Shown: positions 7,924 through 12,460, counted from the stretch's first letter. The stretch: DNA of 64,000 nt from an uncultured Bacteroidales bacterium (GCA_964652315.1 CAZZBU010000001.1:15221-79220); one strand, 5' to 3'. Notes: generated from the letters alone by a model not told the origin. Numbers and translations are program-made.

Positions 7924-9366
7924 ATGGCAAACCCCAATAAAATATTAGTTGTATATCCGCTGATGCATCAAAATGCACCGGATACTACTATTGTATGGGT
8001 CTCTGAATTCGCAAAATTGTTTGAACAGCTATATAACCAGGTTTTTGAATCAACATTCGAACTTGAAATAAAAAGCCTTCAGACCGAAGAAGAGAAAATA
8101 GATGAATTTCTTCGAAAAGTAGAATCGTTTTTAAATGTTTTTGTCGTCCTGTCACCGGAACTCCTTCGTAATGAAACTTATTTAAAATACCTGAAAGGAC
8201 TATATCAGGCAGCACTAAACAGGGCAAAAAGTAATGGCTCCAGTCTGCGGGTGTTTAACATTGTTCGTAAACCGGTATTGAATGTAATAAAAGAAGATTG
8301 GCTTTTACATTTCCCTTTCTACCATCTGTTTGAAAAAACTGCCGGTGTTCGGGGCTTTAAAGCTATTGACTTTTCTCAACGTATTCCTGAAGAATCAAGT
8401 ATTTGGGAAAAGCTCATCGATCTGGCTTTTGATGTGCATGCCTCTATATCCCTTGCCGGGAGTTCAGATAGTCACAAGGCTACAATCTTTCTTGCTGAAA
8501 CTACAAATGATCAGGATCTTTACAGAGACAAAATAGAAAGAGAATTAAAACACAGGGGATTTAAAGTTTTGCCTGAAACACCTCTTCCAACATCCCTGGA
8601 TGATTTGAAGAATGAGTTGACCAATATTGTGGCACAAAGCGACCTTTCAATACATATTATGGGAGGAATCTACGGCGATTACATCAAAAGTGGAGCATAT
8701 TCTCTCATTGATTTACAAAACAGAATTGTGCGGGAAGTGCTGGAAAAAGGCACCAATAAAAAAAAACTGAAACGAATTATTTGGATTCCGCCCTATTTGA
8801 AAATTCCGGATCAACGTCAGGAATTATATCTCCGGAGATTGAAACGTGAAGAAACCGACGAGAGTACCGAAATTATTCAGGCCCCCCTGGAAGATCTCAA
8901 GAGCACCATTTCAAAAACATTAAGAAATAAGGATAAAATAGCAAGGGAACAACTGAGGGACAAAAAATCGGTATACATCATCCATGATTATAAGAATACC
9001 AGCCTGATACCTGAAATAGAGTCGCAAATTAAGGATCAGGGGATGCTTCCAATAAGGCTTGATTTTGGAATTGAAAATATCGTTGAGGCCCATTTTGAAA
9101 ACCTTATCAGGTGTGACGGTGTTTTAATAATTTATAATGGCCTGGAACAATGGCTTAATGCAAAACTTAATGATTTAAAAAAAGTTTGGGGTTACGGTCG
9201 GTCCAAACCTTTTGAAATCACTGCAGTGCTTCTGAAAGAGGATGCATATAAAGATTTGTTCAGACGAGACCTGGGCGATACGATGAAATTGATAATTCAG
9301 GAAGGGATGTTGCAGAAAACACTTCAACCTTTCGTAAATCTGATTCATGCAAAAGAAAATGGCTGA
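7924..9366 (+). CDS. Cytoplasmic protein made of three tandem TIR-like/DUF4062-like (flavodoxin-fold) modules
   Basis: ATG 7924 lies 7 nt after the upstream stop; the track start 7909 is TTG. Module 1 (nt ~7939-8373): KILVVY...NVFVVLSPELLRNETYLKYL...RVFNIVRKPV. Module 2 (nt ~8479-8815): ATIFLAETTNDQDLYRDKIERELKHRGFKV...SDLSIHIMGGIYGDY...RIIWIPP. Module 3 (nt ~8968-9240): SVYIIHDYKNTSLIPEIESQIKDQG...CDGVLIIYNGLEQWLNAKLNDL. No signal peptide or TM segment. Confidence 0.55.
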   Translation: MANPNKILVVYPLMHQNAPDTTIVWVSEFAKLFEQLYNQVFESTFELEIKSLQTEEEKIDEFLRKVESFLNVFVVLSPELLRNETYLKYLKGLYQAALNRAKSNGSSLRVFNIVRKPVLNVIKEDWLLHFPFYHLFEKTAGVRGFKAIDFSQRIPEESSIWEKLIDLAFDVHASISLAGSSDSHKATIFLAETTNDQDLYRDKIERELKHRGFKVLPETPLPTSLDDLKNELTNIVAQSDLSIHIMGGIYGDYIKSGAYSLIDLQNRIVREVLEKGTNKKKLKRIIWIPPYLKIPDQRQELYLRRLKREETDESTEIIQAPLEDLKSTISKTLRNKDKIAREQLRDKKSVYIIHDYKNTSLIPEIESQIKDQGMLPIRLDFGIENIVEAHFENLIRCDGVLIIYNGLEQWLNAKLNDLKKVWGYGRSKPFEITAVLLKEDAYKDLFRRDLGDTMKLIIQEGMLQKTLQPFVNLIHAKENG

Positions 9367-12300: not shown

Positions 12301-12460
12301 GGTTTCTACCAGTCAGCGTGGAAACTTTATGGTCTGGCCTACAAATTCGGATGTTATGAGCGATAAAATGTGTAATTTTATTAACAGAAACATGAATCAA
12401 AGTGAATGGAACTCTTACGTCGGTTCAGATATAGAATATGAAAAAACCTGTAACCCCTAA
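9347..12460 (+). CDS. STAND-type P-loop NTPase (nSTAND-like), single TM helix, long coiled coil, seven WD40 repeats
   Basis: 1037-aa ORF. N-terminal signature NPFPGLRPFSIDDTYLFFGRE, Walker A GASGEGKSS, Walker B LLIVDQFEELF. Hydrophobic FASVLGVTAVIFLGLVLYANF is preceded by KRTLVRTRR. An E/K/Q/R-rich helix and 7 WD40-like blades follow. Start ATG 9347 or 9359; both overlap the upstream stop at 9364-9366. Confidence 0.75.
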   Translation: MQKKMADTEVIKQHIATQSDRKNPFPGLRPFSIDDTYLFFGREGQSAEVIRNLTKYRFAAVTGASGEGKSSLIYCGVISGLQGGFIPEAGANWNIVHFRPGSSPIENLADALFNNLPEKRKKEKTLKPLFLSLLKRSSDGIVEVIKQMRLPDQQNMLLIVDQFEELFRFREATRNFDVINETESFIKLLTDSVSQKNVPVYIILTMRSDFMGECSQFPDLAQRINMSNYLIPRMSREDYKRVVTGPISVAGVKIEEQLVYELLNNVTDEVDSLSVIQHALMRTYEHWKKYSDPLSPISYVDYEAIGKIDNAISYHADEAFNELDEEGQRICRSMFTTLTERGEDNRGIRHPAKVSTIANVAQAPVKDTIEVINKFRTEGRAFLTPSITTPITADTVIDISHESIMRNWDRLKNWIDEEIESVRMYLRISEAAELYQLGKAGLWRPPDLLLAQNWRKRFKPNLAWAKRYNPAFERTMVFLDASEKRYQAEERNKIRMQKRTLVRTRRFASVLGVTAVIFLGLVLYANFQRVEAEKQRLAAEEASQEAEEQRKIAIARTLEAEELRSIAQRNAQLEQEKRAIAEKLSELSDDEKDKALQTATEAELESEILRQTSILERQQREIVEETLRETEKEKTEAQLAKEREYRQRILSISNEMAIRSLQINQNKNLKGLLAYQAYIYNERYNGQEHNSDIYHALLSSLKSFNDPVYQSVEAHLGAVRGVSFHPNANLFYTLGGEGKIYEWDINSPQTPHATIMDDNVLNRSMALSNDGKWLAAGTGENHILLFNLDQPQSPPAKLRGHTGWIWSLAFTPDNSALISSSGDKSIIAWNLSTFEGRLLTENNSGVRSISSSPDGRYVIGGTDDGRLILWNLQDQNSIELHQQQGNTIYAVNYSDNGRLVAFGDKNGQVKLLNPQSGNLIRTLSGHKQRILNLDFSPNGRYLASSSLDGSVRLWSLENLNMPPIVLSGHDSWVLAVAFSADSQHLVSTSQRGNFMVWPTNSDVMSDKMCNFINRNMNQSEWNSYVGSDIEYEKTCNP
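9533..9559 (+). other. Walker A / P-loop (GASGEGKSS)
   Basis: Direct translation of nt 9533-9559 in the CDS frame. Confidence 0.85.
9812..9847 (+). other. Walker B region (MLLIVDQFEELF)
   Basis: Hydrophobic strand followed by D-Q-F-E-E-L-F. The DQFEE motif is typical of the nSTAND-type NTPases often fused to WD40 or TPR arrays. Confidence 0.7.
10865..10927 (+). other. Predicted single transmembrane helix (signal-anchor)
   Basis: 21 consecutive hydrophobic residues, FASVLGVTAVIFLGLVLYANF. The basic cluster KRTLVRTRR on the N-terminal side fits the positive-inside rule. Confidence 0.65.
10928..11290 (+). other. Predicted coiled-coil spacer of about 120-130 aa
   Basis: Uninterrupted A/E/K/Q/R/L-rich sequence with no Pro or Gly: QRVEAEKQRLAAEEASQEAEEQRKIAIARTLEAEELRSIAQRNAQLEQEKRAIAEKL...TEAQLAKEREYRQR. 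Confidence 0.6.
11483..12340 (+). other. Seven WD40-like blades (beta-propeller)
   Basis: Seven units of ~40 aa. Examples: RGHTGWIWSLAFTPDNSALISSSGDKSIIAWNL, SGHKQRILNLDFSPNGRYLASSSLDGSVRLWSL, SGHDSWVLAVAFSADSQHLVSTSQRGNFMVWP. Confidence 0.85.

Follow-up and report, generated by a model that had tools for sequence, protein, structure and literature searches.

A predicted membrane-spanning nSTAND1 protein with an extracytoplasmic WD40 propeller at the centre of a conserved envelope gene cassette in Bacteroidota

The protein encoded by gene C of an uncultured Bacteroidales bacterium is probably, though well short of certainly, a trans-envelope STAND signalling receptor, with a cytoplasmic switch, one transmembrane (TM) helix, a stalk, and a periplasmic propeller, placed at the centre of an envelope cassette. 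The gene lies in a 64,000-nucleotide stretch of DNA, the window (GCA_964652315.1 CAZZBU010000001.1:15221-79220), within a five-gene envelope-spanning cassette, A-B-C-D-E, that is conserved across Bacteroidota. We observe directly the domain composition of gene C, the conservation of its TM segment and stalk, the charge bias around that segment, and the conservation of the cassette. The features of gene C, with coordinates counted from the first letter of the window, are these:

9347..12460, + strand: gene C, nSTAND1-TM-stalk-WD40 protein, an intact open reading frame of 1037 aa
9416..10654, + strand: nSTAND1 NTPase module, aa 24-436, predicted cytoplasmic (Pfam PF20703)
9530-9556, + strand: Walker A GASGEGKSS, aa 62-70 (sequence motif GxxxxGK[ST])
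9815-9841, + strand: Walker B LLIVDQFEE, aa 157-165 (hhhhD, then acidic residues)
10655..10864, + strand: juxtamembrane helical region, aa 437-506, ending in KRTLVRTRR
10838-10864, + strand: basic cluster KRTLVRTRR, aa 498-506 (read from the sequence)
10865..10927, + strand: single predicted TM helix FASVLGVTAVIFLGLVLYANF, aa 507-527 (Hessa dG, Kyte-Doolittle, conservation)
10928..11332, + strand: predicted periplasmic helical stalk, aa 528-662 (Pro/Gly-free, helical in AlphaFold2)
11333..12346, + strand: helical cap, aa 663-705, then seven-bladed WD40 propeller, aa 706-1000, predicted periplasmic (Pfam WD40, AlphaFold2, Foldseek)
12347..12457, + strand: C-terminal tail, motif C-x5-RN[FML]T-xx-EW-xx-YV-x-D[IV]-x-Y-x-KTC (orthologue conservation)

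In other genomes, gene callers start this protein at the position of the ATG at 9359, which gives 1033 aa. The NTPase module matches PF20703 with an E-value of 8.9e-91 (305.8 bits against a cut-off of 27.1) over positions 1-372 of the 379 in the model, its Walker A and B residues are invariant among 39 homologues, and AlphaFold2 models it at pLDDT 80-90; a PDB search found no sequence relative of this module. The juxtamembrane region that follows is the best-conserved segment of the protein, with a median identity of 60% among 81 genome orthologues. The NTPase and helical domain that a first-pass annotation had placed ahead of the basic cluster are thus borne out. The nSTAND1 clade was named by Kaur et al. 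(2021) and placed in soluble conflict systems with effector-associated domains (PMC8195603). Gene C resembles other members in its full-length, high-scoring NTPase, its intact Walker motifs, and, as in other STANDs, a C-terminal repeat domain, but differs in having a TM helix and a long stalk between the NTPase and the repeats and in belonging to a conserved envelope cassette. No nSTAND1 member appears to have been studied experimentally.

The assignment of the TM helix is based on the Hessa and Kyte-Doolittle hydrophobicity scales. The best 19-residue window of gene C has a Hessa apparent free energy sum of -0.83 and a mean Kyte-Doolittle hydropathy of 2.31, and the next-best non-overlapping window scores +8.3, which leaves aa 507-527 as the sole TM candidate, at exactly the coordinates first reported for the hydrophobic helix. 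One hydrophobic segment occurs at the same position in 120/120 homologues (48-71% identity to gene C) and in all 150 of the nearest 50%-identity cluster representatives, 138 of which score dG<1 with one such segment only; two bear additional hydrophobic segments, and the last ten score 1.2-2.5, with Ala/Gly-rich helices after Arg/Lys clusters. Across the clade the hydrophobicity of the helix is kept while its sequence drifts: among the 81 genome orthologues its median identity is 33%, whereas the juxtamembrane helix next to it reaches 60%. This combination is the signature of a lipid-facing helix rather than a buried core helix.

Several observations bear on the orientation of the protein. Gene C has 7 K/R on the N-side of the TM helix against 3 on the C-side, and the 15 residues preceding the helix hold 7 K/R and no D/E. 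The corresponding figures are 6.6 and 3.5 across 120 homologues, and the N-side has the higher K/R count in 123 of 132 diverse members of the clade. In the AlphaFold2 model a continuous 55-residue helix (472-526) runs through the TM segment and is followed by the long isolated stalk. A near-invariant cysteine pair is confined to the C-terminal, predicted extracytoplasmic tail. Against a periplasmic location, the supposed periplasmic part shows no enrichment of Bacteroidota O-glycosylation sequons. Because the Walker motifs are invariant and the partner, B, lacks a signal peptide, the NTPase should need cytoplasmic NTP. We infer that gene C encodes a bitopic N-in/C-out inner-membrane protein whose NTPase is cytoplasmic and whose stalk and WD40 domain lie beyond the inner membrane. 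The same topology had been proposed in the first-pass annotation, and every in-silico test run supports it: TM conservation, K/R bias, the AlphaFold2 helix, the tail Cys pair, and the downstream envelope genes. It is very improbable that aa 507-527 is not a membrane span and that gene C is a wholly soluble cytoplasmic STAND-WD40 protein like Apaf-1, as one might suppose given that characterised STAND proteins are all soluble and that the full gene C model aligns weakly to Apaf-1 in Foldseek. Such a protein is hard to reconcile with a strongly hydrophobic segment of 21 residues after 5-8 Arg/Lys, whose hydrophobicity but not sequence is conserved in every relative examined, which lies within a straight 55-residue helix unpacked against any domain (AlphaFold2), and after which comes an isolated helix of 135 residues.

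The predicted stalk is rich in E/A/R/Q, has a net charge of -10 over residues 530-662, and is modelled as two helices (533-554 and 556-662) at low pLDDT, as expected for a helix that stands isolated. A Pro/Gly-free charged helix of about 125 aa had been described here; its composition and helical character hold, and its length is greater, with 143 aa free of Pro and Gly (528-670) and about 135 helical. The distance from TM helix to cap among relatives has a median of 141-147 aa (10-90% range 138-147), and stalk identity among orthologues is only 22%, yet length is conserved, which fits the idea of a "ruler". The proposal that the stalk forms a coiled coil fares less evenly. A period of 7.0 is strongly significant, its observed power being reached by 0/5000 shuffles of the alignment and 2/5000 of the window protein alone, but a period of 3.5 is not significant, and the heptad pattern is an alanine stripe, with one Ala-dominated core position per heptad, rather than a canonical hydrophobic a/d core. 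An extended stalk might let the propeller reach the outer membrane; alternatively, the stalk may form a hairpin or pack in some other way and hence have a shorter reach.

The seven WD40 blades first read at the C-terminal end find support in each of the methods applied. WD40 and beta-propeller families match aa ~710-1002 (WD40 E 5.8e-47, Pfam), AlphaFold2 places 27 strands between 719 and 998 at pLDDT ~90, which we read as six four-stranded blades and a three-stranded seventh on the assumption that a closing strand comes from elsewhere, and the best PDB fold match (Foldseek) is the 7-bladed PkwA WD40 domain 5yzv, at a target-normalised TM-score of 0.93. The propeller is alignable across the phylum at 30% identity and is not hypervariable. 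Tail cysteines C1009 and C1035, kept in 72/80 and 73/80 orthologues, are a candidate periplasmic disulfide; no solved structure carries the tail motif. Apaf-1 and the DUF4062-NACHT-WD40 proteins TEP1, NWD1, and NWD2 likewise bring together an output domain (TIR-like/DUF4062 or CARD), a STAND NTPase, and a WD40 sensor of canonical propeller fold, but these are single soluble polypeptides with the propeller folded onto the NTPase, whereas in the cassette a separate gene encodes the output domain. A contiguous repeat sensor able to fold back is a criterion for STAND proteins; in gene C the TM helix and the 135-aa stalk separate the WD40 domain from the NTPase. With the propeller predicted to lie across the membrane from the NTPase, autoinhibition by direct contact between the two would be impossible.

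The genes around gene C are these:

4635..7916, + strand: gene A, first cassette gene, 1093-aa inner-membrane protein (TM scan, Pfam HEAT_2)
7909..9366, + strand: gene B, ~480-aa cytoplasmic protein with three flavodoxin/TIR-like alpha/beta domains (AlphaFold2, Foldseek, profile search)
12472..13500, + strand: gene D, 342-aa outer-membrane protein with signal peptide (aa 1-23), N-module (aa ~25-112), and OMP_b-brl_2 barrel (aa 122-297)
12544-12807, + strand: gene D N-terminal periplasmic helical module, ~85 aa with two Cys, conserved
13503..14675, + strand: gene E, 390-aa lipoprotein, lipobox ILTGC (from sequence)
14704..18357, + strand: gene F, secreted protein of PKD/Ig type, 1217 aa, bearing a C-terminal sorting domain for type IX secretion (NCBIfam Por_Secre_tail, E 1.7e-9)

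Gene A, for which an alternative start is the ATG at 4683, has at least nine predicted TM helices in its N-terminal ~450 aa, then HEAT repeats (HEAT_2 E 1.5e-8) and a C-terminus that is weakly cNMP-binding-like (Pfam cNMP_binding E 0.16 only); it is found upstream of the STAND gene in 60 of 61 related loci with sufficient flank. It overlaps gene B by 8 nt, and gene B in turn overlaps the start of gene C, which suggests that B and C are translationally coupled. The domains of B, in which no TM helix or signal peptide was found, are modelled at pLDDT 80 as TIR-like (1-180), DUF4062-like (185-340), and a third (347-476). Foldseek matches B to plant and bacterial TIR domains, and profile searches match it to the TIR domains of TLR6 and SNC1 and to the DUF4062 protein KpSwz (10wc). 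The DUF4062 score of 21 bits is below the Pfam cut-off of 24.7, and the alignment to KpSwz (E 0.005) ends short of its E97. For the catalytic Glu of the E-Y region, E271 is a candidate by spacing only.

Downstream, gene D directly follows the STAND gene in 75 of 79 loci. Its barrel matches OMP_b-brl_2 (E 8e-11, Pfam), its signal peptide was read off the sequence, and its N-module is its best-conserved part (49-57% identity). Immediately downstream of the Runella rosea homologue of gene C lies a gene for a TonB-dependent receptor, and the N-terminal extension of that receptor is homologous to the N-module (pairwise E 1e-9, down to 1.8e-12). The same module thus occurs on two unrelated barrels, each adjoining this STAND gene, and is therefore the likely docking partner of the propeller, a contact proposed from gene adjacency and domain recurrence. 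In FecA-FecR-FecI, the N-terminal periplasmic extension of an outer-membrane barrel is contacted by the periplasmic domain of the bitopic, N-in FecR. The likeness is of architecture only: a barrel with an N-terminal extension is encoded beside a predicted bitopic N-in protein, and the Runella barrel is a TonB-dependent receptor, but the cytoplasmic part of gene C is an NTPase of ~500 aa, and Pfam finds no FecR anti-sigma domain, ECF sigma factor, or STN domain in A-E or at the Runella locus. A lipoprotein-type reading frame of 339-489 aa immediately follows D in 62 of 67 loci. Gene E itself is a fast-evolving member of the cassette, with no matches in Pfam, NCBIfam, or PDB, and its ~7 internal repeats suggest, by eye, a beta-propeller. 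Gene F is a frequent neighbour in Bacteroidales; what is encoded in its position varies, so it is probably outside the cassette core.

The first-pass annotation had called the design of gene C unusual, and here the survey points the other way: in databases the nSTAND1-TM-stalk-WD40 layout is the norm for a very large nSTAND1 clade. The arrangement is common in genomes rather than rare, and appears to be uncharacterised. Earlier comparative genomics recorded STAND relatives that bear a TM helix, as well as kinase-TM-WD40 proteins (PMC7159879, PMC10907252, PMC11032199). Within Bacteroidota the inheritance of the cassette looks vertical and core-like across orders. Gene C identity tracks taxonomy (44-49% in Bacteroidales, 37-42% in Cytophagales), and housekeeping genes flank the locus with conserved synteny, those for topoisomerase IV and shikimate kinase among them, the parE/parC-aroK flank being common to the window and two further loci (L001 and L003). 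Gene B is absent in Fulvivirga and swapped for a PP2C gene in another lineage, with A, C, and D retained, and in some Bacteroidales a HAMP-SpoIIE (PP2C) membrane gene lies beside B or in its place. STAS and RsbW-like kinase genes lie directly upstream of the Runella homologue.

Four loci were examined outside Bacteroidota. Three of them, including one on an Acidobacteriota (Pyrinomonadaceae) contig, pair a gene for TIR_2 and DUF4062 with an nSTAND1-TM-WD40 gene by overlapping stop and start; the remaining one, L087, has as its upstream partner a kinase of 910 aa that carries a DUF4062 domain. TIR_2 in the partners of distant clade members scores 59.9 bits, alongside DUF4062, and the catalytic Glu of SxWCxxEL is kept in all three partners with a full TIR domain. 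Since this two-gene core occurs without A or D, the link to the barrel could be an addition made in Bacteroidota and not part of the basic mechanism. Such pairs would suit an NLR-like anti-phage or anti-invader receptor, in which the periplasmic propeller detects phage ejection or tail proteins or toxins and oligomerisation of the NTPase turns the TIR/DUF4062 partner into a suicide effector that degrades NAD+. DUF4062 has recently been shown to act as a TIR-like NADase in phage defence (PMC13174449; bioRxiv 10.64898/2026.06.25.731849), nSTAND1 was itself defined in conflict systems, and SLATT, TIR, and cyclase genes neighbour one distant locus. For the window we nevertheless consider immunity unlikely. 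The catalytic Glu is replaced in gene B, which reads SPELLRNETYLKYLK with Tyr at that position, and also in its Bacteroidota orthologues; B is missing or replaced in the lineages named above; PADLOC defence-system models match none of A, B, or C; and phage-borne relatives are almost nil. Some distant relatives adjoin conflict genes, but no defence-island or mobile context was found at the window locus, and its housekeeping surroundings, vertical-looking inheritance, and alignable propeller also speak against an immune role. Bacterial antiviral STANDs (Avs, bNACHT; PMC13581612) share the STAND switch, the C-terminal sensor, and, in some, a TIR-type effector, but they are cytoplasmic, with N-terminally fused effectors, and reside in defence islands.

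In the signalling receptor that we prefer, aa 1-506 would form the nSTAND1 switch in the cytoplasm, the TM helix would cross the inner membrane, and a stalk of ~135 residues, conserved in length, would project the seven-bladed propeller, with its Cys-stapled tail, across the periplasm. The cassette would add A as a polytopic inner-membrane HEAT protein, B as a cytoplasmic TIR/DUF4062-like protein (which some lineages do without, and which a membrane HAMP-PP2C phosphatase may replace or accompany), D as an outer-membrane barrel, and E as a lipoprotein. The propeller would dock on or monitor the N-terminal module of D, or a ligand displayed there, and a change in this contact would pass along the stalk, through the TM helix, and on to the juxtamembrane helices, thereby altering the nucleotide state of the NTPase, or its oligomerisation, on the cytoplasmic side. 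The candidates for reading this out are the TIR/DUF4062-like partner, partner-switching components, and protein A. That the sensor drives the switch, that signals run inward, and what the output might be are points we infer from this arrangement, and the NTPase could equally act inside-out.

Inside-out action would be central to a TolA-like structural or mechanical tether, whose stalk would set or bridge the width of the periplasm and whose NTP-dependent assembly in the cytoplasm would serve to position or remodel the barrel in the outer membrane, the lipoprotein, or secretion cargo. A stalk of conserved length whose sequence is free to vary, a core-like cassette that includes a barrel and a lipoprotein and in many cases cargo for type IX secretion, and an A-like and C-like pair inside a contractile-injection-system cluster in Persicobacter all favour a tether. 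STAND NTPases, however, are generally slow switches rather than motors, and the neighbours that recur belong to signalling (TIR-like, PP2C, STAS, RsbW-like kinase, HAMP), so we hold it to be improbable. TolA and TonB (PMC12204202) resemble gene C in their N-terminal inner-membrane anchor, long periplasm-spanning segment, and C-terminal domain that meets outer-membrane partners, but they are not homologous to it, a relation to them being absent from all Pfam results, and they are energised by proton-motive-force motors and have next to no cytoplasmic domain.

Other known systems share part of the design. In M. tuberculosis PknD, a Ser/Thr kinase is followed by one TM helix and an extracytoplasmic beta-propeller. 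Planctomycetota Ser/Thr kinases with one TM helix and extracytoplasmic WD40/TPR or beta-propeller domains (PMC11032199) likewise join a cytoplasmic nucleotide-using module to a periplasmic propeller through a single TM helix, but in kinase receptors of this type a kinase stands in place of the STAND module, and there is neither a long stalk of conserved length nor a linked outer-membrane barrel. In iSTAND ternary systems a STAND-type module is followed by a C-terminal TM segment and then by extracytoplasmic, peptidoglycan-binding domains (Kaur et al., 2020; PMC7159879), but there the STAND is catalytically inactive and the partners are MoxR-vWA, whereas the NTPase motifs of gene C are intact and its partners are others.

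More tentatively, and at somewhat less than an even chance, the clade may represent a new class of bacterial transmembrane receptor, an "outside-in NLR", in which a periplasmic WD40 or TPR head on a fixed-length stalk reads the state of an outer-membrane barrel through a docking module and switches a cytoplasmic STAND, whose output reaches proteins of the TIR/DUF4062-like or partner-switching kind. The Bacteroidota form would then be an envelope-surveillance machine found throughout the phylum and inherited vertically, domesticated from a TIR-STAND conflict module that persists in other phyla.

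C, the STAND protein under study, is encoded by the third gene in a tightly packed, co-directional set of six (A to F), whose successive junctions are overlaps of 8 and 20 nt followed by gaps of 11, 2, and 28 nt:

4635–7916, + strand: A, polytopic membrane protein of 1093 aa with at least nine predicted transmembrane (TM) helices and HEAT repeats
7909–9366, + strand: B, protein with three flavodoxin/TIR-like domains
9347–12460, + strand: C, intact ORF of 1037 aa, nSTAND1-TM-stalk-WD40
12472–13500, + strand: D, outer-membrane barrel (OMP_b-brl_2) with a signal peptide and a helical N-terminal module (N-module) of ~85 aa containing two Cys
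13503–14675, + strand: E, repeat-rich lipoprotein with a lipobox
14704–18357, + strand: F, type IX secretion cargo, PKD/Ig-like, with a Por_Secre_tail

C belongs to nSTAND1 by the family's own HMM: Pfam PF20703 covers residues 24–436 along nearly the entire model (E 8.9e-91, 305.8 bits), and residues ~710–1002 match WD40 and beta-propeller families. Between them lie the basic cluster KRTLVRTRR (498–506), a hydrophobic segment, FASVLGVTAVIFLGLVLYANF (residues 507–527; nt 10865–10927), and a 143-residue stretch free of Pro and Gly (528–670), made up mostly of E, A, R, L, and Q, with a net charge of -10 over residues 530–662. The first-pass annotation had read an NTPase, a basic cluster, a single hydrophobic helix, and a WD40 domain from this ORF; its coordinates are exact, and Pfam confirms the domains. 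The Walker A (GASGEGKSS) and Walker B (LLIVDQFEE) motifs are invariant among homologues of C. In an AlphaFold2 model built with 39 homologues as input (mean pLDDT 81), the NTPase folds confidently and a continuous helix (472–526) runs through the hydrophobic segment. It is followed by two helices of low confidence, as expected of an isolated stalk (533–554 and 556–662), a helical cap, the propeller, and a short helical tail. The propeller (27 strands at 719–998, pLDDT around 90) has six four-stranded blades and a three-stranded seventh, in agreement with the seven blades counted earlier, and among PDB folds the closest is that of the PkwA WD40 domain, also seven-bladed (5yzv, TM-score 0.93). 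Because WD40 matches dominate, a Foldseek search with the whole model is uninformative on the NTPase fold, and a PDB sequence search returned no useful relatives of the NTPase.

Whether the hydrophobic helix spans a membrane or is buried in a protein core can be judged from how it evolves. On hand-coded Hessa 2005 and Kyte-Doolittle scales, the segment's best 19-residue window sums to an apparent free energy of -0.83 (Hessa) and averages 2.31 in Kyte-Doolittle hydropathy; no window elsewhere in the protein scores better than +8.3, so C has one TM candidate and no second. All 120 of its closest homologues (48–71% identical, ~1035 aa each, mainly from Bacteroidales metagenome bins) have one hydrophobic segment with dG < 1 at position 494–521, and the sequence of this segment varies between them.

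Median identity to window C, by segment, across 81 genome-derived orthologues
NTPase: 49%
Juxtamembrane helices (437–506): 60%
TM: 33%
Stalk: 22%
Cap: 38%
Propeller: 30%
Tail: 43%

The most conserved part of C is the set of juxtamembrane helices, which adjoin the TM segment. Since hydrophobicity is invariant, the sequence drifts, and the most conserved region is adjacent, the helix behaves like a lipid-facing span rather than a buried core element, and the earlier call of a TM helix, which also lies within the continuous model helix, is supported. To our knowledge, STAND/NLR switches are understood mechanistically only from soluble proteins whose sensor folds back on the NTPase; that C, with such a helix, is a soluble protein too is extremely improbable.

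The helix is not special to C. An exhaustive HMMER search with the NTPase alone (residues 1–505) against 1.84 billion cluster representatives found relatives in 40,632 clusters (50% identity) at E ≤ 1e-3 and in 9,385 at E ≤ 1e-30. Among the best 150 of the 40,632 (43–53% identity, lengths 592–2428 aa), 138 carry a single segment with dG < 1, located at ~485–530, two have additional hydrophobic segments, and ten have an Ala/Gly-rich segment in the same place (dG 1.2–2.5) with Arg/Lys clusters before it. As all 150 nearest clusters have such a helix, it is a clade-wide feature. The first-pass annotation had suggested that the design would be unusual, which holds against the characterised STANDs but not in genomes, where the TM helix is common to the relatives of C.

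Several features bear on the orientation of C. Of the 15 residues that precede the helix in the window protein, seven are K/R and none is D/E; of the 15 that follow it, three are K/R and four D/E. Mean K/R counts before and after the helix are 6.6 versus 3.5 in the 120 homologues and 6.0 versus 2.7 in 132 diverse TM-bearing clade members, of which 123 have more K/R on the N-terminal side, eight are tied, and one is reversed. The N-terminal module requires NTP, as its Walker motifs are invariant; C has no N-terminal signal sequence; and B, which overlaps the start codon of C, has neither a signal peptide nor a TM helix. At the other end, the tail motif C-x5-RN[FML]T-xx-EW-xx-YV-x-D[IV]-x-Y-x-KTC carries two near-invariant cysteines, C1009 (72/80 orthologues) and C1035 (73/80), the propeller of the window protein contains no cysteine, and the pair fits a candidate disulfide in an oxidising compartment. 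From the charge bias, the Walker motifs, the missing signal sequence, the lack of a signal peptide and TM helix in B, and the tail cysteines, we infer an N-in/C-out topology, which, taken alone, is highly probable on these sequence features; the earlier placement of the NTPase in the cytoplasm by the positive-inside rule stands. The Bacteroidota O-glycosylation sequon D[ST][AILVMT], considered as a periplasm marker, was uninformative, as the C-terminal part shows no enrichment (90 observed versus 126 expected). The tail motif (window 12371–12457, C residues 1009–1037, in the form C-x5-RN[FML]T-xx-EW-xx-Y...C) ends many WD40-type clade members, including long proteins not orthologous to C; no Pfam family or solved structure spans it, and it has no useful PDB sequence relatives.

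The stalk is constrained in length more than in sequence. Between the end of the TM helix and the conserved cap residue L672 lies a median of 141–147 residues (10–90% range 138–147) in sets of 80 genome orthologues and 119 homologues, despite only 22% sequence identity. Alignment-averaged stalk hydropathy has a sharp period of 7.0, whose power is reached by 0 of 5000 shuffles (2 of 5000 for the window sequence alone). The cause is a single Ala-dominated position in each heptad, next to which lies a partly hydrophobic one; the consensus of 42 diverse clade members not orthologous to C shows the A-x6-A pattern too. A period of 3.5 is not significant, which argues for a helix with a narrow packing stripe rather than a canonical a/d coiled coil. 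The long Pro/Gly-free helix noted earlier is present, and the length of ~125 residues then given to it becomes ~135 helical residues. At 0.15 nm per residue, a straight stalk would measure ~20 nm, compatible with a periplasmic ruler, and its conserved length is the strongest argument for such a role. ORFs of 152, 99, 139, and 90 aa in other frames or on the opposite strand overlap the stalk-coding region (window 10429–11456); most likely, these are by-products of biased E/A/K/Q/R codon content and not genes.

The genes around C form a conserved cassette. A scan of one genome per species found a relative in at least 596 species; the top 80 matches are orthologues of full length, which come from Bacteroidales, Cytophagales, and a few Flavobacteriales. 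Counting these 80 loci and three metagenome loci, D lies directly downstream of C in 75 of the 79 with enough flank, A upstream in 60/61, and a lipoprotein-type ORF of 339–489 aa directly after D in 62/67; B was detected in 61/72. The products other than C are predicted in the inner membrane, cytoplasm, outer membrane, and periplasm. NCBIfam names none of A to E. Neither Pfam nor NCBIfam has a family for the membrane domain of A, and a word-index search with that domain gave no homologues at E ≤ 1e-3; the C-terminus of A has a marginal cNMP-binding-like match, and the only useful PDB sequence relatives of A are HEAT repeats. E has no family assignment, and the PDB sequence search found no useful relatives of D or E. 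Identity of C follows taxonomy among the best 80 orthologues, neighbours are conserved, and topoisomerase IV subunits and shikimate kinase lie beyond A in the window and in two Bacteroidales genomes; these points suggest a pattern of vertical inheritance as a core function rather than a mobile defence island. No PADLOC model matches A, B, or C, and phage genomes hold only three weak relatives. The window has a GC content of 40%, and its only RNA gene detected with ARAGORN and Rfam gathering thresholds is a tRNA-His (GTG) at 39244–39318.

The N-module (window 12544–12807, residues ~25–112) is the best conserved part of D, with 49–57% identity among Bacteroidales versus 33–37% for whole D. On a plasmid of Runella rosea, a C homologue with nSTAND1, a TM helix at 497 (dG -2.1), stalk, WD40, and tail motif is directly followed not by D but by a TonB-dependent receptor. 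The receptor's N-terminal extension, before the plug domain (L089, the Runella locus, 10266–10529), is homologous to the N-module (pairwise BLASTP E 1e-9 over 65 residues, both Cys included) and, when searched back, retrieves D modules from 41 loci, the best at E 1.8e-12. Its presence on two unrelated barrels, each directly after a STAND gene, makes the N-module the likely target of the periplasmic propeller, and from gene context the module is best explained as engaged by it. Shared by two barrel types, the N-module resembles a periplasmic domain for docking or signalling, one not described so far.

On the cytoplasmic side, a partner gene is older than the cassette. In four of four examined loci outside Bacteroidota, one of them an Acidobacteriota (Pyrinomonadaceae) contig, the gene directly upstream overlaps the start of a TM-bearing nSTAND1 gene, so the pair of partner and STAND predates the Bacteroidota cassette. 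Three of these partners are ~500 aa proteins with TIR_2 (up to 59.9 bits) and DUF4062, and the fourth is a kinase-DUF4062 protein. DUF4062 has been shown to act as a TIR-like NADase, both in phage defence and in the human DUF4062-NACHT-WD40 protein TEP1 (2026 preprints; PMC13174449; bioRxiv 10.64898/2026.06.25.731849). The full-TIR partners from other phyla (L084 6493–8001, L085 4509–6008, L086 4493–6004) keep the TIR catalytic Glu (SxWCxxEL), whereas B and its Bacteroidota orthologues have lost it. The sole solved relative of the DUF4062-like domain of B aligns over the first 79 residues only, and B evolves much faster than C (48% versus 71% identity to nearest relatives). B is also dispensable in Bacteroidota: Fulvivirga has A, C, D, and E without it, and in one lineage of Bacteroidales a HAMP-SpoIIE (PP2C) membrane gene takes the place of B. 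That C is a periplasm-sensing immune receptor with B as its NADase effector, a reading that the intact partners suit and the degenerate, dispensable B does not, is possible but unlikely; intact TIR partners elsewhere and degenerate ones in Bacteroidota may record the domestication of an immune module.

Other neighbours of C resemble parts of known regulatory circuits. In some Bacteroidales a membrane sensor-HAMP-SpoIIE (PP2C phosphatase) gene lies between A and B, with B and PP2C both present, or replaces B (4587–6593 in locus L010 and 5942–7921 in locus L078), and in Runella the genes upstream of the STAND gene encode two STAS proteins and an RsbW-like kinase (L089 3522–6941). PP2C phosphatases, STAS proteins, and RsbW-like kinases are the three parts of partner-switching circuits, and their recurrence beside C argues for a signalling role. 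The geometry of C resembles that of TolA; set against these neighbours, a TolA-like structural or inside-out device is improbable. On Persicobacter psychrovividus pPP2 (L088 3855–10054), an A-like gene is paired with a C-like one, B and D being absent, and the pair is flanked on either side by sheath, tube, DUF4255, and tape-measure genes of a contractile injection system cluster.

We favor, with moderate confidence, the reading of C as a whole as a trans-envelope STAND signalling receptor. The following is a hypothesis about how propeller and barrel meet, which way the signal runs, and what the system does. The propeller would reach and engage the N-module of D, and a change at this contact would pass through the stalk and TM helix to the highly conserved juxtamembrane helices. 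The NTPase would then change in nucleotide state or in oligomerisation, with output to TIR/DUF4062-like, partner-switching, or HEAT/cNMP-like partners.

In characterised STANDs the sensor folds back on the NTPase, whereas in C a membrane between the two would prevent this, and the clade would therefore need a different activation mechanism. Predicted kinase-TM-WD40 receptors of Planctomycetota (PMC11032199) and FecR/FecA cell-surface signalling have topologies like that of C, but Pfam finds none of the signature domains of either at C. Comparative genomics has mentioned TM-bearing STAND relatives, both iSTAND proteins that combine TM and peptidoglycan-binding domains (PMC7159879) and DGR-targeted NACHT proteins predicted to have periplasmic parts (PMC10907252). 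The searched passages of a systematic STAND survey of 2026 (PMC13581612) do not discuss the nSTAND1-TM-stalk-WD40 architecture. In the literature searched, TM-containing STANDs or NLR-like periplasmic sensors receive only passing mentions, and we found no account of this clade, the TIR/DUF4062 partner, or the Bacteroidota cassette, and no studied member among the nSTAND1-TM relatives of C. The clade is large, uncharacterised, and mechanistically distinct, yet made from known parts, and the NTPase family behind it is very large, as its cluster and species counts attest. The clade would bring a new class of input to bacterial transmembrane signalling, beside histidine kinases, Ser/Thr kinases, chemoreceptors, and anti-sigma factors, and the Bacteroidota cassette is a concrete, testable system joining the inner and outer membranes.
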